Source of the DNA: Candidatus Saccharimonadota bacterium
GTDB taxonomy: Bacteria; Patescibacteriota; Patescibacteriia; 2-12-FULL-60-25
NCBI GenBank assembly: GCA_022843095.1
Contig: JALHOH010000001.1
Location: 120,001 to 152,000, forward strand
DNA length: 32,000 bases
Reading direction: 5' to 3'
Both the position numbers and the translations under genes were made by a program. Below, in pieces: positions 10,604-31,578 of this stretch; the first letter of the stretch is position 1, and each line of letters starts with the position of its first letter. The notes beneath the pieces were generated by a model. The model had not been told where the DNA came from and searched no databases. It saw only the letters and a list, made by a program, of their open reading frames with translations.

Positions 10604-10610
10604 AGCGCAT

Positions 10611-10640
10611 CCCCTCTCCCACCTGGGTGAGGGGTTTTTT
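10611..10640 (+). terminator. Intrinsic terminator of the first paralog.
   Basis: CCCCTC-T-CCC ... GGG-T-GAGGGG forms 9 bp with a 1x1 mismatch, followed by TTTTTT. Confidence 0.7.
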
Positions 10641-10742
10641 ATTCCGGAGAGACACCAATTGACGTGTCGTACAATCTGCGTCATGATGAACTCCCTTCGT
10701 CATCGCTTCTGATACGAGGGAACACAGCACAAGGAGTCTGGA

Positions 10743-16668: not shown

Positions 16669-17120
16669 GCTCGGGGTGGGCAGATGACCGCTTTGCCAGG
16701 CAACTGGCCGAGAGGAAAGTCCGAGCACCTGCCGACGGGTAACCGTCGGTGTCGCGGAAGCAGCTAACGACTGCCAGGGATACGAAACGAGCGTCACTCG
16801 ACGCCTCCGTCCAACCCTAGGGAAAGTGCCACAGAGACAATACTAGCGGACGGCAACGTCCGTGAAAGGTGAAACGTCGTCCGAGGTCCCGACTCCTTTA
16901 CTGGAGCAACGTTCGGCCACGGACGTCCCCCGTCGGTAACGGCGGGGCGCGGTAAACCCTTCCTGGTGCAAGAGCAAGTCTGACGTGGTCGGGGCAACTC
17001 GGCTACGAAAGAATGGTCGCTCGCTGGAGCGTTGGTGCGAATCAACGCCAAGAGAGATGGTCATCAAACTGGGGATCGACTCCCAGGGAACAAAACTCGG
17101 CTTATCGCTCGCCCAAGCAC
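16669..17120 (+). ncRNA. rnpB: RNase P RNA, bacterial type A (about 450 nt).
   Basis: The P4 strands are GAGGAAAGTCCGAGC (16711-16725) and ACAAAACTCGGCTTATCG (17090-17107). Further conserved blocks are AGTGCCACAGAGA, GTGAAAGGTGAAA and GCGGTAAACCC. P1 pairs GGGTGGGC (16674-16681) with GCTCGCCC (17107-17114). The ends are approximate to within 5 nt. Confidence 0.92.
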
Positions 17121-17216: not shown

Positions 17217-18353
17217 ATGGACGCATTGCCGCCGCTCAAAAAAGAGCAGCAGTTTCTGGTCACTCTCCTAACCCAGGCGCTCGAGGCCGGCATTCTTTTG
17301 CCGGATGAGCTCCTGGCTCGATTCCCGCCTTCCGCCATCATGCAGGAGGTGTTCCGGGATCGACCGGAACGCCGTGCCGACATTCTCGGCATGTGCGTCG
17401 GGGTCAAGCGTGGCACTGCGCTGCGCACGACCCCGGAGACGGCGACCGAGAATCTGGTGACCGCGCTCGAAGTCGAAGACACCTCGGCTGCGGAAATCGT
17501 CGCTGCGGTCGGCGCCGAGGACTACGTCCGCGCGCTTCCCGCCACCGAGGCGTACCACTTGGTGATGACGAAGCCGTGGACCACGGAAGTGGACGCGGAA
17601 CGCAAGCGCATCACCTGCATGCAGGCGCTACTCATCGCCATCATCGAACTGGACCTGCTCGCCGGCCGCGAACAGAACAAGACGCTGAACACGCACCACC
17701 AGCTGGTGAAAGCGATCGGTCACGAACATCTGATGGGAGACGAAATCCCCAAGGATTTGCGCGGCGCCATCCTGAAGCTCGCGCTTGCGCTGGGCGAAAC
17801 GCCGGCCGGGGAGAAGAAGCCGGAACCACTCACGGCGAAGATCCTGATCGGCCACTTGAAGCCGGAGGTGCTGACGAAGTACCTCCCACTCTCGACGCTC
17901 GCCCCGGCGCTGGAGGCGGTGCGCGCGAAGTTCGACTGGAAAGCCCCGGCGCCGCCAGCGGAGCTCTCCGCCCGCGCGACGGATGCCCTCGAGAGCGCTG
18001 TCGCGCCTACGGACGACGATGACCAACCGCGCACGACTGTGCGACCCCCTCCTCCCGGAAAGGACGGCGATGTCGAGGTGGAGGTTTCAGAAGAAATCGG
18101 CGATCCGGGAGAGCCGCTTGCGCCCGAGAAACCAGCAGCATCGCCGTCCGCGCCGAAGACGCCTCCAGCCGAAGAGAAGAGTGGGGGCGGTAGTACGACG
18201 AAGCCGAACGGGGGGAAGGATGCCCGAAGAACCGACGCGCCCCTTCCGGACATCTCCCCGGAAACGCTCGAAGGGGTCCCCGGAGCTGCGCCTCCGATCG
18301 TGTCCAAGGCACCGCCACAAGCGCCGCCTCCCCTTCCATCCGGAAAGAGATAG
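17217..18353 (+). CDS. Hypothetical protein with a helical N-terminal region of about 240 aa and an acidic, Pro/Ala-rich, probably disordered tail of about 135 aa.
   Basis: The 378-aa ORF has a strong SD. The tail reads ...APAPPAELS...DDDDQPRTTVRPPPPGKDGDVEVEVSEE...PEKPAASPSAPKTPPAEEK...APPQAPPPLPSGKR. It is GC-rich, and shadow ORFs occur on both strands. Confidence 0.7.
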   Translation: MDALPPLKKEQQFLVTLLTQALEAGILLPDELLARFPPSAIMQEVFRDRPERRADILGMCVGVKRGTALRTTPETATENLVTALEVEDTSAAEIVAAVGAEDYVRALPATEAYHLVMTKPWTTEVDAERKRITCMQALLIAIIELDLLAGREQNKTLNTHHQLVKAIGHEHLMGDEIPKDLRGAILKLALALGETPAGEKKPEPLTAKILIGHLKPEVLTKYLPLSTLAPALEAVRAKFDWKAPAPPAELSARATDALESAVAPTDDDDQPRTTVRPPPPGKDGDVEVEVSEEIGDPGEPLAPEKPAASPSAPKTPPAEEKSGGGSTTKPNGGKDARRTDAPLPDISPETLEGVPGAAPPIVSKAPPQAPPPLPSGKR

Positions 18354-18397: not shown

Positions 18398-20050
18398 CTA
18401 CCAACTCCCTCCACCACCTCCGCCAAATCCGCCGCCGGATCCTCCACCAGAAAACCCAGAACTTCCGCTCCCCGCTGACGAGGGGGCGCGAAACGCCGAC
18501 GCCGCGGATGCCGTATGAAAGGACCGGCTCGTATTCGCAAACGCCATCGCGTTCCATTCCCCCGTCCCAGAGACATACGTCGGTTTTACCTGCATCCCCT
18601 CAAATTGCTTCGCCCACGCCGTCTCGACGCCAAGCGCGATCGCAGCGGGTAAAAACCGCGAAAACTGCTCGGGCGTTTTGTGGGGCGCATCAAAAAACTT
18701 GAGACGTTCGGTTTCGGTGACGGACAAAAACTTCTTCAACCCTTCAATCTCCTCGCGCACAATCGCCCCCTCCACCGTTTTGCGTGGCATGTGCCATCCA
18801 AAAAAGACGATGATGAGCGCGTTCAACAGCGAAACGGGCAAAAACAATTCTCCAACAAACGGCACAAGAATGACCCCAACGATGCCAACCGCAACTCCAA
18901 GCGCGATCCATCCGGCACGCACCGCTGCCGGATTCGCCCCAAACAATTTCAGATGCTTCAGCTCTTCAAACGCTTTTACCCGCGCCTCTTCCATCGGCTT
19001 CCAAAAATCCCCTTTCAGATCTGCAAGCGTAACCTCATCCCCGTGGTCAAAAATCCCATCGTAGATCAAACGGGAAGAGGCGGTGAGTGCATCATCCGGT
19101 TCCTTCATTTTTTTCATCGAGAACGTTTTTGCATCCTGCATCACGATCTTCAAATACCCACGCCGACCCAGATCAAAAATCTCGCCCGTGATGGCTTCAA
19201 GCGGAATATGTTGGTTGCGCAGCGCCATCATCTGCAGGGGTGTCATCTTTCGTGGCTCCTCGTATTGCGCAATCACGACCCCTCGCCCATCCGGTTCTTT
19301 GCCCCGACGACGCCACAATGTATACATGCACAAACACACGACGATCGGTGACAAAAAGATCCAATTATCGGCAAAGAAAAAACGTAGTTGATCCTGCCAG
19401 GTCCATGTCACAAACGTGCCAAGCGGGAAGGCGGCAACGATAGTCAGCCCCTCTCCTGCTCGAAGCGGACGCGTCGACTTGGCCTCGAGCGTTCCGTTCT
19501 TCATCCCAATGGTGCACGACGTCTCTTCGGAGCCAAACGATCCTACAAAACACGAAAGACGCGTCGGGTTCGCAGGCACGGCCAAAGCAAACGTGACCGC
19601 CTGGGCATCCACCTGCCACCCATTCCCGTTCACATTCCAATACAATTCCTGATGTTCGGGCAGATCATTCACCGCACGGCGCGTGTGATAGCGAATGCGA
19701 TAGGTTCGGACTCCGGTCACATACATCTCCGGATCCCCCAGTCGTACCCGCTTGTTTCCCCCTTCGTTCGTCACCTCCGACGGAACAGAAGCGTCATCTA
19801 AGGTGAATCCGTCAAACGAAAGATTCAGGCGGTAACGCGCGCCGTTTCGCTCATAGCGATCCGGTAACACACGAAAAATGCCGTGCCGCGACGCCTCTTC
19901 AAAATCGTAGGTAATGGATTCCGTGAGCGTGAGCGAGCGATCCGCCTGAAGCGTCCCTTCGACGGCAAAACGACGGATAGATTCTGCCTGCGCCGGCCAG
20001 GCAAAAAAGAGGCAAAGCACCGGGACCCCAAAACGCCACAAACGGTTCAT
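18398..20050 (-). CDS. DUF2207-family membrane protein.
   Basis: It has a signal peptide (MNRLWRFGVPVLCLFFAWPAQA) and an extracellular beta-rich domain starting SIRRFAVEGTLQADRSLTLTESITYDFE. TM helices follow, then a C-terminal Gly-rich tail (SGGGSGGGFGGGGGGSW) typical of DUF2207. The track start at 20086 is a TTG inside the upstream terminator, so I prefer ATG 20050. Confidence 0.75.
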   Translation of the reverse strand: MNRLWRFGVPVLCLFFAWPAQAESIRRFAVEGTLQADRSLTLTESITYDFEEASRHGIFRVLPDRYERNGARYRLNLSFDGFTLDDASVPSEVTNEGGNKRVRLGDPEMYVTGVRTYRIRYHTRRAVNDLPEHQELYWNVNGNGWQVDAQAVTFALAVPANPTRLSCFVGSFGSEETSCTIGMKNGTLEAKSTRPLRAGEGLTIVAAFPLGTFVTWTWQDQLRFFFADNWIFLSPIVVCLCMYTLWRRRGKEPDGRGVVIAQYEEPRKMTPLQMMALRNQHIPLEAITGEIFDLGRRGYLKIVMQDAKTFSMKKMKEPDDALTASSRLIYDGIFDHGDEVTLADLKGDFWKPMEEARVKAFEELKHLKLFGANPAAVRAGWIALGVAVGIVGVILVPFVGELFLPVSLLNALIIVFFGWHMPRKTVEGAIVREEIEGLKKFLSVTETERLKFFDAPHKTPEQFSRFLPAAIALGVETAWAKQFEGMQVKPTYVSGTGEWNAMAFANTSRSFHTASAASAFRAPSSAGSGSSGFSGGGSGGGFGGGGGGSW

Positions 20051-20078
20051 ATCTCTCCATCGTAGTGGAACTGCGCCG

Positions 20079-20111
20079 GAAATCAAAACACCGCCCCAGC
20101 AGGAGGGGCGG
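20079..20111 (-). terminator. Intrinsic terminator closing the ORFan island, after gene L.
   Basis: The minus-strand RNA reads CCGCCCC-UCCUGCU-GGGGCGG followed by UGUUUUGAUUU. Confidence 0.7.
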
Positions 20112-20133
20112 CGAACAAGAACACTCTCAACTC

Positions 20134-21096
20134 TTACGGATCATCTCCCCAAATCCATCCAAACTTTCGTTTCGGCAACTCTTGCCGGCAAAACTCTTCC
20201 AATTGTCGGAATGCATCCAAGAGGATCGCATCGCCTCCTGGCTGGTCGATGTGGAATCCGGGGGGGAGAAACATGGCAACGCAGGCCTCCAACAAGTTCA
20301 TCATCCAGGCATATGCATCCCAATCTTCAACCTCTGTATGGATCGGATAGCGTTCAAATAGTTTGAGCCCTCGCCCCAAGAGCGGCTCTTCCCACGCATT
20401 TTGGGCGCAATCACACTCATAGGCATGCCGATCCTCGTAATTCCCCTCTTCGTCGGTAATAATGCCAAGCTTACGATAGAGTGTTTCGATCTTTTGCTCT
20501 GGATGCACCCCGTCCATGAACCACTGTACTTCATCATCCGGATACCCGAAACGATCAAACAATCGCTGCATCAAGAACGCTCCCCACCGTGTGCTCGCTT
20601 TGTAGCTGAACACCCCTTGAAACAAAAAGGTACTGCCGCCTAAAAGCTGCTGTTTAGGCATCTTCGAAAAACGATTCTGCATGTACCGAAGGATATACAC
20701 TTCATCCTCCGGAATCTTCATGTCCCGCAATCGAGTGAGAAAACAGGTGTTGTCAGGCCGAAAAGCCCCTCGCAACGCCCCGTACGAAGACGAATACTCC
20801 TCATCGGGGGATTCACTGAAGTGACCCGGGAGGCCAGCAAGCCAAGCATGCGTCGCAGGCAGTGAAAAATCCCCCTGCCGCATGCGATTAACCCGCTCAT
20901 CAATACGCGACGTATTCGCATCCCGTACATACAGATGCGCCCGAACCTCACCATCTTGCAGAATCCGGTAACAACGGGTCATGTCTCCAAAGAATTCCCC
21001 GTAGATATTTGCGGTGACTTGTTGCTCCTGATTCTCGAATTCCATCACGTCAACTTCGGCAATATTCAACATCTCACCCTTCGTTTCTCCACCCAT
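20134..21096 (-). CDS. Hypothetical soluble protein (island gene L, 320 aa).
   Basis: The ORF has an ATG preceded by GGAGGTGAGGAGG, which is part of the repeated leader. The protein is acidic and Trp-rich (ends ...KRKFGWIWGDDP). I recognise no motif. Confidence 0.7.
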   Translation of the reverse strand: MGGETKGEMLNIAEVDVMEFENQEQQVTANIYGEFFGDMTRCYRILQDGEVRAHLYVRDANTSRIDERVNRMRQGDFSLPATHAWLAGLPGHFSESPDEEYSSSYGALRGAFRPDNTCFLTRLRDMKIPEDEVYILRYMQNRFSKMPKQQLLGGSTFLFQGVFSYKASTRWGAFLMQRLFDRFGYPDDEVQWFMDGVHPEQKIETLYRKLGIITDEEGNYEDRHAYECDCAQNAWEEPLLGRGLKLFERYPIHTEVEDWDAYAWMMNLLEACVAMFLPPGFHIDQPGGDAILLDAFRQLEEFCRQELPKRKFGWIWGDDP

Positions 21097-21104
21097 TTTC
21101 CAAC

Positions 21105-21174
21105 CCTCCTCACCTCCGTGAAGCCGTTCGCTTCGCGGAAGAATCAGAGGCCGTTCCCATGTTTGGGAACGGCG
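21105..21174 (-). repeat. Copy 1 of a 70-nt intergenic module (stop-proximal 10-bp hairpin, second hairpin, then SD). It fills the K|L spacer.
   Basis: On the minus strand it reads CGCCGTTCCCAAACATGGGAACGGCCTCTGATTCTTCCGCGAAGCGAACGGCTTCACGGAGGTGAGGAGG. It matches 22238-22307 at 67/70 positions. Two of the three differences fall in the loop of the first hairpin. Confidence 0.9.
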
Positions 21175-21183
21175 CTACCAGTC

Positions 21184-22233
21184 TCACGTCAGATCCGTTA
21201 CCGTCTCTGGCATGAACGTATTGAACGTCTGATCAGAAAGTACGTGCTTGATGATCAGGGCGGAAAGCACCTCACGTGCTCTCGCGAGATAGGTCTTGTC
21301 TCCCGGCGCGTCTAGGATCGGACCTCCTTCGAGAATACGGACAAGCCGGAACAGTGGACCTAACCCGTGCGCTACCATCAAACGATCATATTCCCGCCTA
21401 AGTCGACCGAAATACGCCCGTCCAGCCACCGGTTGTAAACGTGCAGGATCAATCTGCGGATCCATGAGCACGGCACACGTCGCAACCCATAGGATGGCCG
21501 GATCCATCGCCTCAACCGGATGAGCAAACACCGATCCAAGGTACTTCTGACTCTCCACTTCGTCCCGATATCCCTGTCTGAGCTGTACACACAGCTCCTC
21601 ATCTATGGAGATCTGATACCGATCCAAGAGATCAAGCATGCAGAGCTGCATTACCCTCGCACACTCCCTTGAGGTCACAAGGTGCTCCGCGACGCTTCCC
21701 AGATCAAGACGAAACCCCCCGGGAGAACACAAGAGCTGAATCATGCGCATCACATCCGGAAACGGGAAGACGTGTGCCGTTCTACTGTCCCCCACAGGCG
21801 GTCGCAACAAAAGTTGGAGATAGCATGTGTCAAACGTGGTCCCACGCATGGGGTCGCATGACGCCACCCGTACCTCGATCATCTGGGGAGAGATGCCGTA
21901 CAGCGGCTCTCCGCGCAGAAAACCAATCAGGCGTTCGGACAACCCCCACCCCGATAGCATGCGTGCGCGTCCGGGGGGTGGCGGAAGATCAAACTCATCC
22001 AAGATGGCAAGAAAATCACTGGATCCTTTATACACTAGATACGGATCCACGCGATTTTTTGAACAAGGAATGCGCCCATCAATGAGCACCGGAAAACGGT
22101 CTTTCCCAATGTCTACGACGACCCCCTCCGTACTTAAAGTCAAGCACTCATTTTGATAATCAAGCACTTTTGTAGACCATGCTTGCTTGAACTCAAGATC
22201 GCACGCTGACAGTCTCCTGATTTGATACACCAT
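21184..22233 (-). CDS. Hypothetical soluble protein (island gene K, 349 aa).
   Basis: The ATG lies 4 nt after the repeated SD block. No motif is recognised. The gene is flanked on both sides by the 70-nt module. Confidence 0.7.
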   Translation of the reverse strand: MVYQIRRLSACDLEFKQAWSTKVLDYQNECLTLSTEGVVVDIGKDRFPVLIDGRIPCSKNRVDPYLVYKGSSDFLAILDEFDLPPPPGRARMLSGWGLSERLIGFLRGEPLYGISPQMIEVRVASCDPMRGTTFDTCYLQLLLRPPVGDSRTAHVFPFPDVMRMIQLLCSPGGFRLDLGSVAEHLVTSRECARVMQLCMLDLLDRYQISIDEELCVQLRQGYRDEVESQKYLGSVFAHPVEAMDPAILWVATCAVLMDPQIDPARLQPVAGRAYFGRLRREYDRLMVAHGLGPLFRLVRILEGGPILDAPGDKTYLARAREVLSALIIKHVLSDQTFNTFMPETVTDLT

Positions 22234-22237
22234 GTTT

Positions 22238-22307
22238 CCTCCTCACCTCCGTGAAGCCGTTCGCTTCGCAGAAGAATCAGAGGCCGTTCCCACGATTGGG
22301 AACGGCG
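22238..22307 (-). repeat. Copy 2 of the 70-nt intergenic module. It fills the J|K spacer.
   Basis: On the minus strand it reads CGCCGTTCCCAATCGTGGGAACGGCCTCTGATTCTTCTGCGAAGCGAACGGCTTCACGGAGGTGAGGAGG. It begins 4 nt after the stop of gene J and ends 4 nt before the ATG of gene K. Confidence 0.9.
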
Positions 22308-22311
22308 TAGG

Positions 22312-22872
22312 TTACAACGAGGTCGAGCGCACAATCTTGAAGACTCCGCTGTCTTCAACAATTTCGCGCACGGTTCCTCGCATGTCCTGGACGTGCTTGC
22401 GTACCCGGTACAGGTACACCAGTAGCATCGGCTCGATCCAAAATAGGGTACAGACAGATGCGAACTGTCTGCGGATCGCGCCGTGAGCGTGTTCCTGCTT
22501 GATCAAAAGAAGCAGGAGGAGCACGCCCCAGATCGGTGCGAGCGCATAGAACGCCCCAAGCGCGAAGCTTGCAATGAAGAAGACGATGAACGCCCCCTTC
22601 CGCACCTCGCCTCCATCTCTGACGAGTTCGCCGCGCTGATCCGACAGCCAGAGTTGATATTCCAGCAAATCATGATCAGATGCGAGCTGCGCCGGATGTC
22701 GCACGCGCACTTCGGCTAAGAGCGTTGTCACAGATCGTGCCACGCCCTCTTTACAGGATCGCTGCTCCCACACGGCGATACGTCCCGCAAGACGACACGC
22801 CGTGCGACGACAGGTGGCTCCATGCGCCCAGGCATGCAGCTGATCGACGGTCAGAGGAACCGGAGTTTCCAT
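22312..22872 (-). CDS. Hypothetical membrane protein (island gene J, 186 aa) with a soluble N-terminal domain and two or three C-terminal TM helices.
   Basis: I place the start at ATG 22872 (METPVPLTVDQLHAW), which overlaps the stop of gene I as TAATG. The TM segments are GAFIVFFIASFALGAFYALAPIWGVLLLLLLI and CTLFWIEPMLLVYLY. Confidence 0.65.
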   Translation of the reverse strand: METPVPLTVDQLHAWAHGATCRRTACRLAGRIAVWEQRSCKEGVARSVTTLLAEVRVRHPAQLASDHDLLEYQLWLSDQRGELVRDGGEVRKGAFIVFFIASFALGAFYALAPIWGVLLLLLLIKQEHAHGAIRRQFASVCTLFWIEPMLLVYLYRVRKHVQDMRGTVREIVEDSGVFKIVRSTSL

Positions 22873-23141
22873 TACTCCCCCTCTTTTTTCACAGCCGCGC
22901 CAATGCGCGCCATTTCCTCCAGCACCTCCCCAAACAAGAGAAAGCGCAACAAGAAATACGAGCAGTGGCCGAAGAGGATGGCGCCAAGGACGGCTAGGCC
23001 CTTTTGCACCAACCAATGCGCCTGTTCACGTACGGCTGCGCCATAGCAGGCCCAAGTACCAAACAGGAGCATGCACCCGATCACGACATGAAGTACTGCG
23101 CATTCTCGTGCCGTGATCAATACTTTCTTTACTTCCTCCAT
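22872..23141 (-). CDS. Small membrane protein (island gene I, 89 aa, 2 TM).
   Basis: The start is ATG 23141 (MEEVKKVLITAR), preceded by GGAAGGAGGGTGGG. The TM segments are AVLHVVIGCMLLFGTWACYGA and LAVLGAILFGHCSYFLLRFLLF. It lies 20 nt downstream of the stop of gene H. Confidence 0.6.
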   Translation of the reverse strand: MEEVKKVLITARECAVLHVVIGCMLLFGTWACYGAAVREQAHWLVQKGLAVLGAILFGHCSYFLLRFLLFGEVLEEMARIGAAVKKEGE

Positions 23142-23161
23142 CCCACCCTCCTTCCTGGATT

Positions 23162-23590
23162 CTAACCCAGAATGATCTCGTCTACGGCAAATGCCGCACG
23201 ACCAGCGCACGTACACCACGCTTGAAGTACCGTCGCAACAACCGGTTGCAACGGACGCGGCGTCACAACGCCGAACCCTTGGCTCTGCCAGCCGGTCACG
23301 TTGCCGGCCACATCGCATTCCCCTGCGCCCTCCAATAGGATGGTCCGATCTCGTGGCAGATTCTCGAGCGCCTCGAACCGAGTCCGCTCCCGAAACACCT
23401 GCTCGAACGTCTCATCCAGAGGGATGGTGGCGCACAGATACAGGATCACATGCGAGGCGAATGCGCCAAGCCAGATCTTTTCTCCTTGCACCAAGAACTT
23501 CAAGGTCGGCCGCGAACCGCTCACGACAAACGCCTTCGCCCGACGCGACCGTGAACTCATTTCCGCTCTGCTGATGTAATGTACCTGCAT
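23162..23590 (-). CDS. Hypothetical soluble protein (island gene H, 142 aa).
   Basis: The ATG is preceded by AGGGAGG at 5-nt spacing. The composition looks globular (MQVHYISRAEMSSRSRRAKAFVVSGSRPTLKFLVQGEKIWLG). No motif is recognised. Confidence 0.6.
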   Translation of the reverse strand: MQVHYISRAEMSSRSRRAKAFVVSGSRPTLKFLVQGEKIWLGAFASHVILYLCATIPLDETFEQVFRERTRFEALENLPRDRTILLEGAGECDVAGNVTGWQSQGFGVVTPRPLQPVVATVLQAWCTCAGRAAFAVDEIILG

Positions 23591-23755
23591 TCATACCTCC
23601 CTGTTTGCCCACAGAATCCTCTGAGCAAAAAGGGAGGCAGAACGGAAATTCATCCACTACGATCTGACGAAAGAGGCGGTCGGGTAGAAACCAACGCACC
23701 TCCTTTGGAAGATCGCCCTCTCTCGTTGGAGAGAGCGCAGGATCCGAGAAGATCC

Positions 23756-24667
23756 TCAGACGCGCAAGGACAATGGCGGTGGCAACCGCACAAGTCCAAG
23801 CGCATCTCGCACGATAGAAAGGACGGCGCCGACACTGATTCCCAGGTGATACGGGAGCGCCTTGGTCCCGAGCATCTGCAGGTGCCGCGCAAGCGCGACC
23901 GGCGAAACGGAGACCATCTCACGAGTGCCGTTTGCTTCGATGTGCCAAAAATGCAGAGGCACACCGTATTCCAGCGTCGCGATCACGTACCGAAGCTGCG
24001 TTTCCAACTCCGAGCGAGTGGGAACGCGTCCGAAGTACGGAGCCGCGGATCCCCGGTAAGGCGCCCCGGTATTCACGGAGACCTCTTTTACGCACTGCTG
24101 CTTTTTTAGCATCGCATCCCAGATGCGCAACACCGTGAGCGCGATGGTCGGCGGGAGATCTTGCAGCGTTTCCACGAGGTCGATCTCCACCAACGGACTG
24201 CACCGTTTCAGGATCCGGATGCACGAGGCATAGGATCCATCCTCGGGGCGAAGCGTGAGCCCGTGAGGTGTTTCCCGAAGCGCCTCCCCCGCCGCTCCGA
24301 CGATGATCGTGTTGTCCCACTCCGTCTCATCGACGCACGTGAGAGCGACTTCGTACGTGTCTCCGGCACTTGGAGGAAATGCTCCGCGCAACTCGTCGAC
24401 GCACCGGATAGAAAGCCGCAACAACCGTTGCTGCTTAAGCGATAGCAGCCGATTTCCAAGAGCCGCGTCGAGATCGTTCCGCCAGGAAGGGACCCCATCG
24501 ATCACCGCGAGGAGCGGCTCGATGGGTCGCGTAGACCACCGTCCTTTCCCGGCGCTCATGCGCACATCGACAGGCGCCCCTTCAACACCCACGATCCGCG
24601 CGATCACTCCTTCTGGCGCAGGCACACCCGTGTCCGCGAAGACGCGAATGTCCGGTTTCGTATTCAT
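23756..24667 (-). CDS. Hypothetical soluble protein (island gene G, 303 aa).
   Basis: I place the start at ATG 24667 (MNTKPDIRVFADTG), preceded by GGAGGTGGTG, only 14 nt after the stop of gene F. No motif is recognised. Confidence 0.65.
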   Translation of the reverse strand: MNTKPDIRVFADTGVPAPEGVIARIVGVEGAPVDVRMSAGKGRWSTRPIEPLLAVIDGVPSWRNDLDAALGNRLLSLKQQRLLRLSIRCVDELRGAFPPSAGDTYEVALTCVDETEWDNTIIVGAAGEALRETPHGLTLRPEDGSYASCIRILKRCSPLVEIDLVETLQDLPPTIALTVLRIWDAMLKKQQCVKEVSVNTGAPYRGSAAPYFGRVPTRSELETQLRYVIATLEYGVPLHFWHIEANGTREMVSVSPVALARHLQMLGTKALPYHLGISVGAVLSIVRDALGLVRLPPPLSLRV

Positions 24668-24681
24668 CACCACCTCCGTTC

Positions 24682-25575
24682 CTAAAACCGCTGGCCAGAC
24701 GCGCGAGGGAACCATCTCCCGCGCACGCGCACCTTCATGACAGACGAAAGCGCCTCCGCAAACACGTACTCGCCGCGTTCGCGCACTGCATCAGTGTCCA
24801 CCGCCTTCGCCTCCGACAGGATACGCGTGCCCATCGTGACCACGCGATCCGCCAGATTCTGCCGATACGTCCAGGCCTGTTTTGCCGGCGTCACCGTGAA
24901 CCGATGAAGCGCCTGCACGCATTCCTGCACATCCGACGAAACCTCCGCGACCTCGACAGCCGCGAGAACCTGTCCAAGCTCGGACAGATCCGACAGCGTC
25001 GACGCATCCCCGACCCCGATGATCGGTCGGGAAAGACGCAACGACTGCAACACGGTCATCACGAACTTCTCGAGCACGGCACGCTGCTCTGGACCGGGAA
25101 GCGTTTGCCACCAGGCAAACAAATCCACCTCCAGAAACGCCCCAAATGCCGCAACCGCCGGCCAATAAAAGGACTCCCGAACCTGGACCAACCACAACGC
25201 ATGGCGCGTCGCACGATCCACGATCTCGAACCGGCCAGCAATGCCGGAGATCGCCCCCTTCTTTCCTGTCGCAGCATCCGACGGTCGTTCGACGGACGGG
25301 CGCAAAAACACCGTGTCCGCCGCCGGGGCAAGAAACTTCCCCTTCCAAACCGATCGGCGACGGTCCTGCCACGCGACGACATGCTTGCCGTACACGGGCT
25401 CCATCGTCCCGATGAGCTCGTACCCCAGCGCCTCCTGGGTGTGGAGATCGATACTCACCGCCTCCTCATTCGTAGGAAAGCCGACCAGCTCTCCAAGTGG
25501 GAGAGGCGAAAGCGGCTTGGCTCGCTCGGCGGCCACCAAACGATCCCGTAACATCTCCTTCTCTTTTTCGTTCAT
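24682..25575 (-). CDS. Hypothetical soluble protein (island gene F, 297 aa).
   Basis: The ATG is preceded by GGGGAGGATGGAGGAAGA. The N-terminus is MNEKEKEMLRDRLVAAERAK. No motif is recognised. Confidence 0.65.
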   Translation of the reverse strand: MNEKEKEMLRDRLVAAERAKPLSPLPLGELVGFPTNEEAVSIDLHTQEALGYELIGTMEPVYGKHVVAWQDRRRSVWKGKFLAPAADTVFLRPSVERPSDAATGKKGAISGIAGRFEIVDRATRHALWLVQVRESFYWPAVAAFGAFLEVDLFAWWQTLPGPEQRAVLEKFVMTVLQSLRLSRPIIGVGDASTLSDLSELGQVLAAVEVAEVSSDVQECVQALHRFTVTPAKQAWTYRQNLADRVVTMGTRILSEAKAVDTDAVRERGEYVFAEALSSVMKVRVRGRWFPRASGQRF

Positions 25576-25612
25576 TCTTCCTCCATCCTCCCCACGACAC
25601 CGCGTCCTGGGG

Positions 25613-25647
25613 AAAAATGAGGCCAGGAAAACCGTCCGTTTTCCTGG
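25613..25647 (-). terminator. Intrinsic terminator or attenuator inside the island, in the E|F spacer.
   Basis: The minus-strand RNA reads CCAGGAAAAC-GGACG-GUUUUCCUGG (10 bp) followed by CCUCAUUUUUCC. It starts 4 nt after the stop of gene E. Confidence 0.7.
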
Positions 25648-25651
25648 ACAC

Positions 25652-26536
25652 CTACAGGCTCTTCAATATGGTCGTCATCTGTCCAAAGCCGCTATCCAAG
25701 ATCAAGACTTCTTCTGGATAAAGTTCCCGCGCGTACGCTTCGATCGTGTGAGCAAAGACCTCGTCGTTCGAAAGGGAGAAGTATCGATCTGCGAATTCAC
25801 GCCTCACCAACGCAAACCCCCACATCGCAGCCATGACGGATCTGTCCTCGTCTCGAAGTGCCTGGACAAACCGCTCCAGCGCTTGCTTCCACGGCGTGGA
25901 AGGAATCGTCGTCACCCAGTTCGCGACGTCGTTCACCAAGGTCTGTCGTACAGGCTGCTCGGCAAATGCCGCAAGAACAACATCTTGCGCCTGTTCAACC
26001 GACCAAAGCTGCCGAATGAGCGCCAACGTGGCACGCAAAATCCTTACGGGTTGATGGATAAACGCTCCTTCGAGCGAGACCGTGGTACGCTTCCGCAATT
26101 CGCCACGCAACACGGCCATCTCCTGATGCGTAGGCTCCTGCCATTCAGAGACGAACACAGCGTAATCGAAACGAGGCTGACGGTATTGCACTCGCTTCTC
26201 CTGCCGCGGCATCCTGAGACAAAACGCCGTTGGGCAGGAATACCCATACTCGCGCTCATCCGCAGGCATAGGAGGCACACCATCCATGTACAAACAATCG
26301 CGTCGCGCCTCTCCGGTGAGCACGGATTCGAGAAGCGTCCTATTCACCGCTTCTTCTTGAACCGTTTGTGATCCAAGAAAGGCATACGCCCGATAACAGG
26401 GCAGGTACACGGTGGTGATGCGTCCACCGTTGCGCCCCACCAATCGCCAGGTGAGGTCCACCATGCGTCGCTCCTCGATCAAGGTCCTGTAGACCTCGCG
26501 AGACGCCTTCTCACCAAGAATTTCAAATGTGCTCAT
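25652..26536 (-). CDS. Hypothetical soluble protein (island gene E, 294 aa).
   Basis: I place the start at ATG 26536 (MSTFEILGEKASREVY), preceded by AAGGAGGGG at 4-5 nt. The upstream part of the track ORF covers the structured spacer. No motif is recognised. Confidence 0.65.
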   Translation of the reverse strand: MSTFEILGEKASREVYRTLIEERRMVDLTWRLVGRNGGRITTVYLPCYRAYAFLGSQTVQEEAVNRTLLESVLTGEARRDCLYMDGVPPMPADEREYGYSCPTAFCLRMPRQEKRVQYRQPRFDYAVFVSEWQEPTHQEMAVLRGELRKRTTVSLEGAFIHQPVRILRATLALIRQLWSVEQAQDVVLAAFAEQPVRQTLVNDVANWVTTIPSTPWKQALERFVQALRDEDRSVMAAMWGFALVRREFADRYFSLSNDEVFAHTIEAYARELYPEEVLILDSGFGQMTTILKSL

Positions 26537-26540
26537 CCAT

Positions 26541-26626
26541 CCCCTCCTTGGAAGCCATTCGCTTCCTCTCTCCCCACATCTGCGAATATGGGAAAAGAGG
26601 AAGCCGTCTTCATGGGAAGACGGGAA
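26541..26626 (-). repeat. Degenerate third copy of the hairpin/hairpin/SD module, in the D|E spacer.
   Basis: The minus-strand RNA reads CCGUCUUC-CCAU-GAAGACGG ... GGAAGC-GAAUG-GCUUCC-AAGGAGGGG. The segment CTCCTTGGAAGCCATTCGCTTC matches CTCCGTGAAGCCGTTCGCTTC of copies 1 and 2 at about 19/24 positions. The AGAGG..CCGT..CATG..GGGAA..CGG block is also shared, with an insertion of about 30 nt. Confidence 0.5.
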
Positions 26627-26664
26627 GAAAGAACGAAAGATCATTTCCAAAAAAGAACGATTTG

Positions 26665-27198
26665 TCAACGGATCCGCATCGTTTTGGCACGGTACCGCTG
26701 AAAGCGCACTTCCGCGTATTTATGATTGCGGAACGGACGTTCCATGCAGGTTGTGGGCGACCAAAGCGCAAGACGTCCATCCGAGAGCGGCGTCACCTGT
26801 TCTTCGTCCAGGTTTCCCGCAATCCCAGGCGTTTCTCGCCACCAAGGCCGTGGATCCGGGTCGATCGCCTCCGGCGTCCCGAACACCAAATCCCCATCCA
26901 TCCACAAGATGTCCCACGTCAGCGGATACGAAACCACCTGAAACTGATCCGCCACATACAGCCACCCTGTGACCCCTTCCAGCTCAACCATCATCTCCAT
27001 CGCTTGTCGGACCTGCTCAATCCAACGTCGCAGTGGCGCGTGGTATCGATCGAGATAGGCGCGCAACAGCACCGGCTCCCGGATCAGGGATACCACGGCT
27101 TCCTGATACGCCCGATCTTGCTCCTTCGCCCGGTCAAAGTCCCGGACGACCTGCACGATCTGCTCCTGCAACGCAAGCAGCTCTTGTTTCAGCGTCAT
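26665..27198 (-). CDS. Hypothetical protein (island gene D, 177 aa) with an N-terminal coiled-coil-like helix and a Trp-rich C-terminal domain.
   Basis: I place the start at ATG 27198 (MTLKQELLALQEQIVQVVRDFDRAKEQ), preceded by AAGGAGG at 6-nt spacing. The later segment is GWLYVADQFQVVSYPLTWDILWMDGDLVFG. Confidence 0.6.
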   Translation of the reverse strand: MTLKQELLALQEQIVQVVRDFDRAKEQDRAYQEAVVSLIREPVLLRAYLDRYHAPLRRWIEQVRQAMEMMVELEGVTGWLYVADQFQVVSYPLTWDILWMDGDLVFGTPEAIDPDPRPWWRETPGIAGNLDEEQVTPLSDGRLALWSPTTCMERPFRNHKYAEVRFQRYRAKTMRIR

Positions 27199-27269
27199 CC
27201 GGTCCTCCTTTCCAGCTCGTTCCCCTGTAGACAAACGAAACCAATGCTGAGTCCGTTTGTCCAGTTACG

Positions 27270-27295
27270 CAAAAACGCCGAGCAATCACCCGGCG
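27270..27295 (-). terminator. Intrinsic terminator in the C|D spacer.
   Basis: The minus-strand RNA reads CGCCGGG-UGAUUG-CUCGGCG (7 bp including one G:U) followed by UUUUUG. It lies about 125 nt downstream of the stop of gene C. Confidence 0.65.
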
Positions 27296-27419
27296 ACACA
27301 TTTTTGAGCGTACACTCCTCCTTAGGGCACCGTGCCCCGCACAAGATCCGCGCGTGGGTGGAGTCCACGTCAGATCCTTTGCGGGACCGGTCTCTTGGGA
27401 GTTCCGTTGAGACCGAACA

Positions 27420-27782
27420 CTAGATACCGACACACAACTTCGCCTTCAGCTCTTTTTGTCGCGCCTGGAGTCGACGCCTGTCCACGGGAGCGCGGAGAAT
27501 ATCACGGAGCCGCGACCGACACAGAACTTTCATGCAGGAATAGATGTCGTGATACTCAACCAGTGTTGGTTGTTTCCGAATATGTTTTACCATCTCTGTT
27601 TGAAGAGCTAGTATCATGTAGCCAAAACACCAAGGACTCCTCAATAGGCAAACATAGAGCATGGCGCAGAATAAGAACATGGCGCAGAAGAAAACGAACC
27701 ACAAAAACTTTTCCCTTTGACGCACGTCCTCCATCAAATTTTCAATGTGCTGAAGCTCAGAAAAATTTTCTTCTCTGTACAT
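27420..27782 (-). CDS. Small membrane protein (island gene C, 120 aa) in an AT-rich gene.
   Basis: I place the start at ATG 27782 (MYREENFSELQHIENLMEDV), preceded by GGTGGAGGG. The hydrophobic hairpin is FLWFVFFCAMFLFCAMLYVCLL..WCFGYMILAL, and the C-terminus is basic. A sample line gives about 43% GC. Confidence 0.6.
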   Translation of the reverse strand: MYREENFSELQHIENLMEDVRQREKFLWFVFFCAMFLFCAMLYVCLLRSPWCFGYMILALQTEMVKHIRKQPTLVEYHDIYSCMKVLCRSRLRDILRAPVDRRRLQARQKELKAKLCVGI

Positions 27783-27902
27783 GATCCCTCCACCCGGGTC
27801 GTGATTGACCCCATTGCATGCACCAATCTGTGATGCACGCGATGGGATCCACCTTGCAGGACGCAAGATGGTTGCCGCAGAGCGCGGCGAAGAAGGAGCA
27901 AA

Positions 27903-29666
27903 CTACTGCGCGATGACGGGGATCGCCATCGAGGGGCACGAGCGGAGGCCGCACGGGTTGATCGCGTAGATGCGATCGCCCGAGACAGCGCCCGAGGTGC
28001 GGATGTTGAGCACGCCGGGCATGCCCGACATGTAGTTGAGGTCCCACTCGCCCTGGACGTAGCCATGGGCGATGTTGAACTCCACCGAGTACGCACCGGC
28101 CGGAAGCTCGGCGGGCCAGCTGTGCGCGGGCATCGCGCGGATCTGGATCCGCACCGGCCGACCGGGGAACACGTTGATCGTGTTCGCGGTCAGGTCGATG
28201 TCGCGCGCCTGGTTCTCGCCGGCCGGAAACGTATCCTGGCCGTGCGTGGCGCCGTCCCCGTCCACGACGTAGATCCGATTCACGAAGCTCGCATGCCCCG
28301 TGAGCTGGATCCGCAGACGATCGATCACGGCCGGCTCGAGCGTCGAGCGCGCAATGTAGTTCGCCACCACGTACATCGGCGGCCGTCCGATCCAGAAGCC
28401 CGGCGTGACCGATGCGCTCGGATCGATCTCGATCGAGAGCGTGCCACGGTCATGCACCGTGACGAAGTCGACCGGCGCGGCGCTCGCGTTGGCGATGACA
28501 CCCGAGGCGAGGTTGACCGAGGCGGTCAGCTCGCTATCGTCGAAGGCGATGACGTCGCTCGGGCGCGCGATGCCGATCGAAAGCCGATCGCCCCCCGTGA
28601 GCTGTGACACGACAGAATCCATCGTGCAGCGCACCTCGAGCGTTCGCGACGTTCCGCGCGGAATCGACCAGTTCATGGCCGTGATCCGGATTCTGCCCAT
28701 CGAATCAGGCGACTGCGCCAATCCGACTTCAACGTTGCCGTCGAACAACGCACAGCTCGTCGCGACGTGCCACGCGTTGTAAGGAAGGAAGAATCCGTTG
28801 ATGTTGCCCATGGCGGACAACGTCGTCTCACGCACCTGCAGATCGCTCGCCGCGCTCGCGGTGAACACGATCCCAGTGACGGGAGCACGATTCGCCTTCT
28901 TCACCGTCTCCGTCCGCATCGGCGTTGCCGCCAGCGCGACGTTCAGGGTGGGGGCGACGACCGTGAAGGGATTTCCCTCCGCGATCTCGTTCCCCACGAT
29001 CTCCTCCGGCAAAACGAACGTGCCATCGCTGATGCGGCGCACGTCGCTCGGCCGAAAGAAGCGCGCGCCCTGCTCGTCGGTGAAGGAGATGCGATAGCTC
29101 CTCCCCACCAACTCACCGGGGACATCCTCACGGCTCGCGATGTCCATCGTGATGCCGAGGCGGCGCACTTCGCCGCGCCGCATCGCGAACGCATCACGCA
29201 CCTCCCAGAAGACGCTGTTCGTAGTGGGTGCCGAAATGGACGTCGGCCCCATGAGGGTCTGACCGGTTTCGAGGTCCTTCCACTTGATGTCGTGGAAGTA
29301 GACGCTCTCCAGCGACCCGACGAACGACCGCTCCGACGCGTCCGACACGAGTCGGTGACGCGAGGCGCGGATCTCGACGTCGTCGAGCGCCTCCAACCGG
29401 AAGGCGAAGACCACGTTGTCCTGCTGCCCGACCCTAACGTTCCGCGCGGCCGGCCCGTCGTAGTACAGACGAAGCGCGGGCCGCAGTACCGGCGGCGTCG
29501 TGCCTGCCGGCGGCGGAACGTCGCCCGGCACCATGCCCGGCGGAGACGTAATCGGAACCGGCGTTGCGATCGGAAGCGCATCTGCGGAAGCGGCCGAACC
29601 GACCACGACCGGTGAACACCCCGACAAAACCAATGCCGCCACAAAGGCGATCATCAACTTACGCAT
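27903..29666 (-). CDS. Large predicted lipoprotein (island gene B, 587 aa), apparently all-beta and built of repeated modules. It is very GC-rich.
   Basis: I place the start at ATG 29666, giving MRKLMIAFVAALVLSGCSP (signal peptide with the lipobox LSGC). A Pro-rich linker (PITSPPGMVPGDVPPPAGTTPP) follows. Strand-like segments then recur (VVFAFRLEA, LEVRCTMDS, TLSIEIDPS, VRIQIRAMP, YSVEFNIAHG). Sample lines give about 65-72% GC. Confidence 0.7.
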   Translation of the reverse strand: MRKLMIAFVAALVLSGCSPVVVGSAASADALPIATPVPITSPPGMVPGDVPPPAGTTPPVLRPALRLYYDGPAARNVRVGQQDNVVFAFRLEALDDVEIRASRHRLVSDASERSFVGSLESVYFHDIKWKDLETGQTLMGPTSISAPTTNSVFWEVRDAFAMRRGEVRRLGITMDIASREDVPGELVGRSYRISFTDEQGARFFRPSDVRRISDGTFVLPEEIVGNEIAEGNPFTVVAPTLNVALAATPMRTETVKKANRAPVTGIVFTASAASDLQVRETTLSAMGNINGFFLPYNAWHVATSCALFDGNVEVGLAQSPDSMGRIRITAMNWSIPRGTSRTLEVRCTMDSVVSQLTGGDRLSIGIARPSDVIAFDDSELTASVNLASGVIANASAAPVDFVTVHDRGTLSIEIDPSASVTPGFWIGRPPMYVVANYIARSTLEPAVIDRLRIQLTGHASFVNRIYVVDGDGATHGQDTFPAGENQARDIDLTANTINVFPGRPVRIQIRAMPAHSWPAELPAGAYSVEFNIAHGYVQGEWDLNYMSGMPGVLNIRTSGAVSGDRIYAINPCGLRSCPSMAIPVIAQ

Positions 29667-29770
29667 TTTCAAAGTCCTTTCTGGAGCACCTGCTCCAACG
29701 AAGGTTCGGATGCGCAACACATCCGAGGCTTTGTTGGAGCCATCTCTTCGCAGAACACAGAGAGATGAAC

Positions 29771-30229
29771 TCAGTGAAGACATCTGGCCGACGGAATCGT
29801 CAATGGAATCTCCATGTTCACATTGATCAACTCACCCCGACAGAGGCCAGACAGTCGAGAACGATCGGATGAGCCAACCTGGGCAAAAATCCGCATTGAA
29901 GCGAGCGAACGCCCTTCAAAAGAAGACCATTGCTCACTGCCATATCGAGGTTGACGTCCTTGAGTGCCTTCGCAAACAACATTCGCATGGACGAACCCCA
30001 TCCAACGCTGATCCATACGGAGTTGCAACCGAGATCCGCGAGAATCATGCCTCTCCCCAATTGGACCAAAAGCGAACACCCTCCATCCCGACGGACAATA
30101 CGAGAGGTCCGCCCGACTAACATCGATGCAGAGGTGGCCTTCCGGACACGAAGGAAGTGGTTCGCTCCCCCGGCACCCAGCCACCACCATCACCAATACA
30201 GCCAGAAGCAGAGTGAACAAGCTCTTCAT
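29771..30229 (-). CDS. Small Cys-containing lipoprotein (island gene A, 152 aa), the first gene of the island.
   Basis: The N-terminus is MKSLFTLLLAVLVMVVAGC (signal peptide with the lipobox VAGC). Six further Cys follow. The SD AAGGAG sits 8 nt before the ATG. Confidence 0.65.
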   Translation of the reverse strand: MKSLFTLLLAVLVMVVAGCRGSEPLPSCPEGHLCIDVSRADLSYCPSGWRVFAFGPIGERHDSRGSRLQLRMDQRWMGFVHANVVCEGTQGRQPRYGSEQWSSFEGRSLASMRIFAQVGSSDRSRLSGLCRGELINVNMEIPLTIPSARCLH

Positions 30230-30257
30230 TTTTCAGCTCCTTCTAGAACCCGTTCCT

Positions 30258-30314
30258 TACGGATTCCCCAAATTTGTTCGAGCGCCGGGCTCAAACCCAT
30301 TGCGGGAATCCGTA
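30258..30314 (-). promoter_or_regulatory. Structured element in the leader of gene A: an 11-bp long-range helix enclosing 35 nt.
   Basis: The arms TACGGATTCCC (30258-30268) and GGGAATCCGTA (30304-30314) are perfectly complementary. The enclosed region contains GAGC-GCCGG-GCTC. The element lies 29-85 nt upstream of ATG 30229. Confidence 0.55.
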
Positions 30315-30481
30315 GTCTGTTTATTTTGTCAACAGGTTAACAAAAACGCGATAACGATCCTTGTGAGAACCCCAGGAGGAGAGCCACAAGAATCAATATC
30401 GCGTTTCTTTACACGGTTTTGCAAGCGCGCTCTCCACTTCGCCCTTGCAAATCAAGTTATATTGGAAGTTTCAACAATGGA

Positions 30482-30510
30482 ACAATAACACGTTTTCATG
30501 ATTTTGTCAA
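30482..30510 (-). promoter_or_regulatory. Promoter candidate for the island, read on the minus strand.
   Basis: On the minus strand: TTGACA (30510-30505), the 17-nt spacer AAATCATGAAAACGTGT, then TATTGT (30487-30482). A second minus-strand TTGACA at 30332-30327 lacks a convincing -10. Confidence 0.45.
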
Positions 30511-30585
30511 GGACACATAAACAAAAAAGGAACTTCCAGAAACACCCGTTCCTCCTTGACCCGACATAGGGTATACTTCATCTAT

Positions 30586-31578
30586 ATGCCCCGCCGGTTA
30601 CGCGTCGCCACCCTTGGTTCTGCCATCCAAGACGTGTTTCATGTAAGCAATGCGTTTGAAACCCGGAAGGATCCCGATGCGCCAGACGGCATGGATGCCT
30701 GCATGCCGCTTGGTGCCAAAATCGCGTTGGATGATCTGGTGCTTGCAACCGGAGGGGGTGCGACCAACGCTGCCGTCACTTTTGCCCGGTTTGGATATGA
30801 GGCGATCTGCATCGCGCGGGTGGGTGCTGACCTTTTTGGAGATGGCATCGTGGATACCTTGCAAAAGGAAGGGATCACAACCACCTTCGTTCAACGCGAT
30901 CCCAAACAAAAAACCGGGTATTCTTCGATCATCGTTGCGGGCGGAGGTCATCGCGCCATCCTGACTCTGCGCGGAGCATCCGCGCATCTCGACAAAAAAG
31001 CCCTCGCTAAAACACCAAAAGTCGATGGCTGGTACATCACCTCCTTGGGAGGCGATCTCGCAACTCTACGCGTTGCCTGCGCGCGAGCCGCAACACAGCG
31101 TGCACGTATCGCCTGGAATCCTGGAAACGCCGAGCTTGCGCTTGGATTAACCGCGCTTCGTCCCATACTCAAAAAAGTCGACTACCTGATCCTCAACCGC
31201 GAGGAAGCTGCGGTCCTGACCCACCAACCCCCGCGTGCGCTGGGCAAAATCTTGGATGTCCTTGCCGCTATCGTCCCAGGAACAATCGCGGTGACAGATG
31301 GCCGCCATGGCGCGTATCTCGCCGCATCAGGAGAACTCCTCTTCGCCCCGCCCCTCCCCGCAAAACGAAAGAACACGACAGGCGCAGGAGACGCCTTTGG
31401 GAGTGCCTCTGCCGCGATCTTGTTTGCCGGTGGATCCCCGGCACTCGCACTCGCGGTCGGGATGTTAAACGCAACCGGCGTCATCCAACAGATGGGCGCA
31501 AAAGCCGGAATTCTGAAAGAACTCCCCACAGCCACAGCCATCAAACGCGTGAAAATGTTTTCGTCCAAAGAATCGTGA
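30586..31578 (+). CDS. PfkB-family carbohydrate kinase (ribokinase-like).
   Basis: It carries the N-terminal GG motif region (LATGGGATNAAVTFARFG) and the C-terminal signature NTTGAGDAFGSA. I place the start at ATG 30586 (MPRRLRVATLGSAIQDVF). TATACT at 30572-30577 sits 8 nt upstream and no SD is present. The track start at 30556 is a TTG. Confidence 0.85.
   Translation: MPRRLRVATLGSAIQDVFHVSNAFETRKDPDAPDGMDACMPLGAKIALDDLVLATGGGATNAAVTFARFGYEAICIARVGADLFGDGIVDTLQKEGITTTFVQRDPKQKTGYSSIIVAGGGHRAILTLRGASAHLDKKALAKTPKVDGWYITSLGGDLATLRVACARAATQRARIAWNPGNAELALGLTALRPILKKVDYLILNREEAAVLTHQPPRALGKILDVLAAIVPGTIAVTDGRHGAYLAASGELLFAPPLPAKRKNTTGAGDAFGSASAAILFAGGSPALALAVGMLNATGVIQQMGAKAGILKELPTATAIKRVKMFSSKES

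Follow-up and report, generated by a model that had tools for sequence, protein, structure and literature searches.

A probable replacement-type flexible island of orphan genes between the PfkB and DUF2207 genes of a Patescibacteria chromosome

A stretch of 32,000 nucleotides (nt) of contig JALHOH010000001.1 (positions 120,001 to 152,000, here called the window) carries a block of twelve genes, named A to L in the order of transcription, between a PfkB-family kinase gene and the gene of a DUF2207 membrane protein. We conclude that this block is probably a lineage-specific flexible genomic island of the replacement type, which sits at a hot-spot between the divergent PfkB and DUF2207 genes on an Uhrbacteria-like chromosome of the Patescibacteria (Candidate Phyla Radiation, CPR). 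The observations that carry this reading are the insertion at a hot-spot, the coding status and the orphan status of the genes, the protein family of lipoprotein B and the constraint on the spacers between the genes.

Host and slot were traced through the two flanking genes, for which Pfam confirmed the DUF2207 and PfkB assignments of a first-pass annotation of the window. Of 28 relatives of the DUF2207 protein, 27 come from records labelled or binned as Patescibacteria-type metagenome-assembled genomes (MAGs), the best one from a Candidatus Uhrbacteria MAG (45% identity). In this MAG, the PfkB gene (51% identity) and the DUF2207 gene lie side by side and diverge, their start codons being 46 nt apart; in the window the distance is 10.4 kb. 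A further version of the slot was found on a 22.4-kb ENA contig that encodes a B-like protein (P0024). Here, PfkB on the minus strand is followed by twelve genes and by DUF2207 on the plus strand, with a 661-amino-acid (aa) CHASE2 cyclase further downstream. The slot genes of this contig span ~8.6 kb and encode proteins of 41, 546, 197 (minus strand), 609 (B-like), 104, 151 (SLT lytic transglycosylase), 92, 100, 142, 276, 79 and 170 aa. The neighbourhood is that of the window, the gene set differs by gene lengths and Pfam labels, and the common part is the B-like gene. PfkB and DUF2207 bound the slot in all three cases. Since it is empty in one relative and apparently holds other genes in another, the slot appears to be a hot-spot with rapid turnover of its content, and the only gene that recurs in it is that of the B-family surface protein. 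Two ENA samples (ERZ1426823 and ERZ1426529) share an identical B-like protein that is preceded by different genes (a 197-aa gene on the minus strand versus an 86-aa and a 102-aa gene on the plus strand), and thus the slot varies at strain level in the ENA relative, too.

The twelve island genes are real. All open reading frames (ORFs) described by the first-pass annotation were found at 20134-30229, running in one direction on the minus strand over ~10 kb. Their starts were refined by placing the ATG of each of the twelve genes according to the position of its Shine-Dalgarno (SD) sequence; in the case of B, a longer ORF reaching up to 29783 represents an upstream extension, and the SD-based start lies at 29666. 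The resulting models correspond to identical sequences in a public protein collection, all of which derive from one NCBI contig of 683,555 bp. By codon log-likelihood the called frame was the best of six in 11 of the 12 genes, while C tied with a reverse frame. The values of B and of D to L were as high as those of the housekeeping genes in the window; those of A and C were weak. Codon usage is host-like, and the tetranucleotide correlation between island and flanks amounts to 0.90.

Strain variants of the island were recovered on four short contigs (L029-L032) from two sequencing runs (SRR31864886 and SRR31730576). They carry D'-E-F-G-H-I-J' in the same order at 93-98% nucleotide identity, and independent gene calls gave the same gene lengths. 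Ratios of nonsynonymous to synonymous substitution rates (dN/dS) against these variants were 0.31 for E, 0.09 for F, 0.14 for G, 0.16 for H and 0.27 for J; the 0.61 obtained for I is based on three changes only. These values mark the tested genes as protein-coding and subject to purifying selection. An assembly collection that contains both runs with D'-J' yielded neither B, K nor L, nor any fragment of them. This hints at separable ends of the island, with poor assembly as the alternative.

Several features that the first-pass annotation had read by eye were reproduced in our sequence checks. The upstream region 30230-30555 (326 nt) is AT-rich, with 44% GC versus 58% in the island, and a terminator-like hairpin lies near 20.1 kb. 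GGAGG-type SD sequences precede 11 of the 12 genes, B having AAAGGA instead. Tight junctions are F-G (14 nt), H-I (20 nt) and I-J (TAATG overlap), and the remaining junctions comprise structured spacers of 76-221 nt. A lipobox of the form [LVI][ASTVI][GAS]C that is preceded by a signal peptide was identified in A (VVAG-C) and B (LSG-C). C, I and J contain hydrophobic segments consistent with transmembrane segments, and weaker ones occur in G and H.

Nearly all island proteins are orphans. The absence of readable catalytic or binding motifs, noted in the first pass, agrees with our profile searches, none of which assigned any of the twelve proteins. Pfam, PADLOC and PHROGs gave no significant match for any of them, NCBIfam none among the ten proteins tested (all but I and J), and PDB sequences did not match the island proteins either. 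The best hit to a system model of PADLOC-DB 2.0 had an E-value of 0.063, which is noise. Exhaustive or near-exhaustive searches covered five proteins (E, F, G, K and L). A full HMMER pass of E, F, G and L through 1.84 billion representative proteins returned only four self or near-identical strain proteins, L matching only itself, and K matched only itself among 5.8 billion protein clusters. BLASTP detected no paralogy inside the island, and Smith-Waterman scores against shuffles remained at z < 2 for all pairs. The five proteins of ~300 aa thus do not form a recognisable family, and the common leader of K and L (see below) is not matched by any relationship between the two proteins. AlphaFold2 modelling of concatenated E, F, G and L without an alignment gave a mean predicted local distance difference test (pLDDT) score of 35 and was unusable. 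At the level of sequence, 11 of the 12 proteins are without a detectable family, B being the sole exception.

Residues 60-428 of B led to four relatives with 37-47% identity, and a metagenome scan revealed four further loci of the family (L034-L037). The proteins encoded there are large (1,175-1,328 aa), and an internal stretch of them can be aligned to residues 65-579 of B with 34-36% identity. The genes of these large proteins adjoin genes for DUF5667, Wzy_C plus TPR, GT4 glycosyltransferase and AsnB proteins, which places them in a cell-envelope context. Members of this modular family differ in the modules they contain, and B and its homologs share a conserved C-terminus. While the large beta-sandwich surface proteins are encoded in glycan-biosynthesis loci, B is a 587-aa lipoprotein of an orphan island, and in the loci L033-L038 the B homologs adjoin neither flank nor any of the eleven remaining island proteins. 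Together with the lipoboxes of A and B and the transmembrane segment of C, these neighbourhoods support the envelope-facing front end (A, B and C) that had been proposed earlier.

Domain searches with B gave a weak match to Pfam LPAM_1 (E = 0.0017, just under the Pfam cut-off) and none to CARDB or Ig families of Pfam. One family member weakly matched the Fn3-like domain fn3_5 (E = 5e-4), and PDB profile searches with alignments of the B family returned nothing. An AlphaFold2 model from a 5-sequence alignment is all-beta with ~4 sandwich-like modules, at a pLDDT of 50.7, i.e. at low confidence. Foldseek matched this model to integrin legs, Bap BSP, CBM51 and TEP1 in the PDB with template modelling scores of 0.1-0.17, and thus only generic 'strings of beta-sandwiches' are indicated for B. 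Judged by alignment and prediction, B is one of a small group of related multi-beta-sandwich envelope proteins, which occur as lipoproteins or within proteins of 1,200-1,300 aa.

The G+C content at third codon positions (GC3) of B-family genes exceeds that of their neighbours, with 0.85 versus ~0.62 for B (27903-29666), 0.84 versus 0.76 in L036 (7220-11167) and 0.63 versus 0.49 in L037 (7640-11626). High expression could account for this, or else an unusual base composition of the family itself. The closest homolog of B, P0023 from a Joint Genome Institute (JGI) sample (L038, 458-1971), contains an in-frame stop, past which frame and similarity continue; a pseudogene, a sequencing error or recoding could account for it.

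The most unusual element of the island is its hairpin/anti-SD leader architecture, which is conserved and partly duplicated. Folding stability was judged against dinucleotide shuffles, and for all long spacers and the leader of A, 0 of 200 shuffles were as stable as the native sequence. The long spacers have z-scores of -3.8 to -6.1, and with the 250-nt leader of A the range reaches -6.7. A sliding scan placed the window's strongest structures, the tRNA aside, inside the island, the B-C spacer being among them. Outside the island, spacers are short (median ~44 nt). The layout of the island junctions is recurrent: right after the stop codon comes a GC-rich hairpin, and behind it a pyrimidine tract, which pairs with the GGAGG of the next gene and thereby encloses an inner hairpin. 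For E, F, H, J, K and L, the SD is predicted to be paired with a probability of 0.8 or more (1.0 in the E-F and 0.96 in the G-H spacer).

Comparison of the strains revealed 9 substitutions among 403 nt of spacer versus 86 among 1,110 third codon positions (Fisher P = 3e-5). The spacer substitutions sit in loops or unpaired positions. This also holds for the D-E spacer, which is kept in L029 and L032, and the E-F and G-H spacers differ by 0-1 and 1-3 substitutions, respectively. Constraint on the RNA structures between the genes exceeds that on synonymous sites. Strong structure, SD masking at several spacers and this degree of conservation support the look of shared post-transcriptional control that the first-pass annotation had described.

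The layout occurs twice as a 70-nt leader, in front of K and in front of L. The two copies differ at three positions, namely two loop bases and one U/C that faces a G, and the predicted structure is preserved. K is thereby a leader-plus-ORF unit of 1,133 nt with direct repeats on both sides. Spacers beside B-like genes of two other samples (L033 1913-2020 from ENA and L038 340-460 from JGI) share the exact 14-mer CTCCTCTCCGCCTT. One hairpin precedes this 14-mer, and an inner hairpin plus GGAGG follow it, which matches the layout of the E-F, G-H, J-K and K-L spacers of the window. The hairpin and anti-SD/SD layout may be a portable leader module in the lineage.

SD-sequestering translational operators, RNA-thermometer-like elements and intercistronic stabiliser or partial-terminator hairpins in polycistronic mRNAs are known comparators. 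The island junctions resemble SD-sequestering leaders and stabiliser hairpins in the hairpin after the stop, the pyrimidine tract on the next GGAGG, the high predicted pairing and a conservation above that of synonymous sites. Unlike them, the layout recurs within one island, at 5-6 of its junctions and in one case as a 70-nt copy of 96% identity ahead of unrelated genes, and has no Rfam match: searches with the spacers and the leader of A gave none at the gathering threshold, and relaxing to E <= 1 added one spurious miRNA match. Against the remainder of the window and 489 kb of related loci, the spacers showed nothing beyond chance 11-16-mers, and the motif TTGACAAA (3 occurrences) was not enriched over shuffles.

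Some further observations concern translation and leader signals. The middle hairpin of the leader of A bears an anti-SD-like CUCCUCC in its loop and is followed by a U-run. Core genes of the window (at 30586, 2242, 11508 and 8859) seem SD-less, and some look leaderless, compared with 11 of 12 GGAGG-type SDs in the island. PfkB has TATACT 7 nt ahead of its ATG and DsbA has TGCTATACT 9 nt ahead, whereas TrpRS and a ParA-like gene are without an SD. All features of the island and its borders are listed in Table 1.

Table 1. Genes, flanks, signals and spacers of the island, with coordinates in the window and z-scores of predicted RNA folding
Feature	Coordinates	Strand	Length	Description	z
A	29771-30229	-	152 aa	candidate Cys-rich lipoprotein; signal peptide, VVAG-C; NCBI model identical
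B	27903-29666	-	587 aa	lipoprotein (LSG-C); Pro-rich linker, then ~4 beta-sandwich modules (low-confidence model)
C	27420-27782	-	120 aa	small membrane protein; NCBI model identical
D	26665-27198	-	177 aa	soluble protein; C-terminal part also on strain contig L032
E	25652-26536	-	294 aa	soluble orphan
F	24682-25575	-	297 aa	soluble orphan
G	23756-24667	-	303 aa	orphan, 14 nt past F
H	23162-23590	-	142 aa	same length in independent gene calls on L030 and L031
I	22872-23141	-	89 aa	membrane protein with two transmembrane segments and charged C-terminus
J	22312-22872	-	186 aa	membrane protein; start overlaps stop of I (TAATG)
K	21184-22233	-	349 aa	soluble orphan between both copies of the 70-nt leader
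L	20134-21096	-	320 aa	acidic soluble orphan
DUF2207 membrane protein (flank)	18398-20086	-		likely start ATG 20050; conserved slot neighbour
PfkB-family kinase (flank)	30556-31578	+		likely start ATG 30586; conserved slot neighbour
Terminator-like hairpin, island end	20089-20113	-		9 bp, 8 GC, plus UUUUGAUUUC U-run	-3.8
Promoter candidate, sigma70-like	30482-30510	-		TTGACA-17-TATTGT, TG extension; consensus match only, in 44% GC region
A leader	30230-30480	-	~250 nt	three long hairpins (22-nt and 26-nt arms), U-run after the middle one	-6.7
A-B spacer	29667-29770	-	104 nt	three hairpins	-4.3
B-C spacer	27783-27902	-	120 nt	post-stop pyrimidine tract pairs with SD of C around three inner hairpins	-5.4
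C-D spacer	27199-27419	-	221 nt	canonical terminator-like hairpin plus UUUUU at 27276-27295	-3.8
D-E spacer	26537-26664	-	128 nt	terminator-like hairpin, then 20-bp pyrimidine/purine helix	-4.7
E-F spacer	25576-25651	-	76 nt	terminator-like hairpin, then helix masking SD of F	-5.8
G-H spacer	23591-23755	-	165 nt	four hairpins, the last masking SD of H	-6.1
J-K spacer	22234-22311	-		70-nt leader copy 1 (22238-22307): GC hairpin, SD-masking helix, GGAGGTGAGGAGG	-5.2
K-L spacer	21097-21183	-		70-nt leader copy 2 (21105-21174), 96% identical to copy 1	-4.3

The flexible-island reading extends from these observations to transcript structure, to SD masking as a means of regulation and to a role at the surface or towards hosts and phages, and in these parts it is conditional. 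Transcription would start in the AT-rich upstream region and proceed through the structured leader to yield one or few polycistronic RNAs. At each long junction the RNA would form a terminator-like or stabiliser hairpin, often followed by a helix of pyrimidine tract and SD that masks the next ribosome-binding site. With such hairpins and masking helices, expression along the island would be graded and conditional. Most likely, the island supplies a variable surface-exposed module, in which B, together with A, would be exposed on the cell, C, I and J would reside in the membrane, and the soluble orphans would serve as accessory proteins or cargo. Such a module would act where the cell meets hosts, neighbours or phages, and its content would be exchanged or renewed fast, like that of other replacement islands for exposed structures.

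Replacement flexible islands that encode exposed structures have been described in aquatic prokaryotes (Lopez-Perez, Martin-Cuadrado and Rodriguez-Valera 2014, PMC4033161). The block A-L resembles them in its fixed slot between core genes, the host-like composition and the lack of any integrase or mobility gene among our matches, and probably also in a content that differs between relatives and is in part surface-exposed. However, classical replacement islands carry glycosyltransferase, O-antigen, S-layer or pilus genes with recognisable domains, whereas nearly all proteins are orphan and most are soluble here. The islands of PMC4033161 were moreover compared across many strains of one species, while our three slot versions are spread across species or genus.

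A number of points weigh against the flexible-island reading. Seven of the 12 proteins have neither a signal peptide nor a transmembrane segment, so that for most of the island nothing points to a role at the surface alone. The protein functions are putative throughout, the structure models are of low confidence (pLDDT 35 and 51), and the hairpins could serve another role, given that the transcript structure is itself derived from prediction. The comparison comprises no more than three versions of the slot, and for the ENA version the different content refers to gene lengths and Pfam labels, so that diverged counterparts (e.g. of the 142-aa gene) are possible, exhaustive searches having covered E, F, G, K and L only. 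Since CPR genomes are rich in orphans everywhere, the cluster may have no unifying function. Orphan islands at hot-spots are a known kind of element, and orphan clusters are common in CPR genomes.

The 10.4-kb insertion relative to the Uhrbacteria MAG could instead be a mobile element that integrated and then decayed, for example a cryptic prophage or some other element particular to CPR, with proteins too divergent for profiles. The dense co-directional genes with uniformly strong SDs next to core genes that look SD-less or leaderless speak for it. I is holin-like in form (89 aa, two transmembrane segments, charged C-terminus), the island of the ENA relative encodes an SLT lytic transglycosylase, and 70-nt direct repeats bracket K. 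We nevertheless regard such an element as improbable. Pfam and PHROGs searches gave no match to an integrase, transposase, terminase, portal or capsid protein, tblastn found nothing in 50,697 phage and 72,556 plasmid records, and IMG/VR held no relative of the B module, K or G. Flanking direct repeats or an adjacent tRNA are absent (the only tRNA is 15 kb off), codon and tetranucleotide usage are host-like, and the genes are under purifying selection, unlike decaying ones. A prophage or integrative element was rejected or at least weakened on these grounds. Co-directional orphan ORFs, palindromic spacers of 76-221 nt and the K unit between repeats also recall an integron-like cassette array (CALIN), whose attC sites the hairpin spacers would represent. 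Yet RYYYAAC...GTTRRRY pairs at attC spacing number 0 in the island versus 1.55 expected by chance, the spacers consist of several independent hairpins plus an SD and not of one long imperfect hairpin, and the window contains no detectable integrase. This effectively refutes an integron array, and the chance that it applies is negligible. The first-pass annotation had pictured an uncharacterised multi-component system, and in its strict form this would be a single dedicated machine of twelve components, with an envelope front end and cytosolic subunits, inherited as a unit. Consistent with this, all genes are co-directional, F-G, H-I and I-J are tightly coupled, the junction architecture is common to the island and the order D-E-F-G-H-I-J is kept in two other samples. 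But these samples are strains with 93-98% nucleotide identity, at which a kept order is uninformative, and beyond them the gene-order check found no co-localisation, so that a conserved system is not supported. E, F, G, K and L lack a homolog in any other genome or metagenome searched, near-identical strains aside, B homologs occur without the other eleven proteins, the slot holds other genes in a relative, and the missing B, K and L in the collection with both D-J samples hint at separable ends. We therefore consider a single machine very improbable.

A novel module for inter-microbial conflict or self/non-self recognition (VARTIG- or polymorphic-toxin-like), or a new anti-phage defence, would have B as its recognition or delivery component and the orphans as effectors, immunity and accessory proteins. 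VARTIG islands of Thermococcales (Makarova et al. 2021, PMC8416519) carry a large secreted Ig-fold protein near the 5' end, followed by unique sets of smaller genes, many of them singletons; they are recently acquired and hypervariable, and most of their gene families encode transmembrane proteins. The block A-L resembles this architecture: a secreted multi-beta-sandwich protein that gains and loses modules within its family is the only component common to two slot versions, it precedes smaller orphan genes, and the whole has a hypervariable, recently acquired look. However, only 3 of the 10 proteins encoded downstream of B have transmembrane segments, B is a lipoprotein and the second gene instead of the first, and its C-terminus is conserved among homologs, with no hypervariable or toxin tip detected. 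No relationship to arCOG07710 or arCOG14200 was seen (for arCOG07710 this rests on the missing CARDB/Ig Pfam match, no direct comparison having been run), and the host is a CPR bacterium and not an archaeon. The likeness to VARTIG is one of layout only, and membership is not supported. Pfam and NCBIfam searches found no toxin, nuclease, ATPase or protease domain in any island protein, and PADLOC-DB 2.0 gave no match to a known defence system. Of the roles suggested in the first pass, surface or host interaction is supported in its surface part as far as the B family consists of envelope proteins, and defence found no positive evidence. On balance, we judge a conflict or defence module unlikely. 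A more far-reaching variant, for which we see a slim chance, would make the island the CPR counterpart of VARTIG- or polymorphic-toxin-like modules: B would sit on an episymbiotic cell, the orphans would be fast-replaced effectors and immunity proteins, and an undescribed portable 'hairpin + anti-SD/SD clamp' leader would be copied before new genes (K/L, L033/L038).

CPR or Patescibacteria have small, host-dependent genomes full of unannotated genes, and the location, coding status and turnover of such orphans have rarely been shown. The PfkB–DUF2207 hot-spot can be traced across relatives and combines purifying-selected orphans, a recurrent surface-protein family and constrained intercistronic RNA structures. 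The B family and the clamp-type leaders provide handles on cell-surface variation, and the island allows expression inside long operons to be studied in a genome with largely SD-less-looking core genes. By itself, the finding opens no long-standing question.

The rest of the window is ordinary chromosome with genes for tRNA-Leu, RNase P RNA, RNase J, TrpRS, DsbA, an SBP_5 protein, a CHASE2 cyclase and FecR. Three long ORFs outside the island are without a Pfam match (4590-6350, 9866-10684 and 17217-18353). The gene calls at 4590-6350 and 9866-10684 are uncertain because an opposite-strand frame scores equal or better. The RNase P RNA (bacterial type A, 16672-17120) measures 449 nt versus 367 positions of the model and thus contains insertions. 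The ORF at 17217-18353 has a Pro/Ala-rich tail, a GC3 of 0.76 and a strong AAGGAGG SD.

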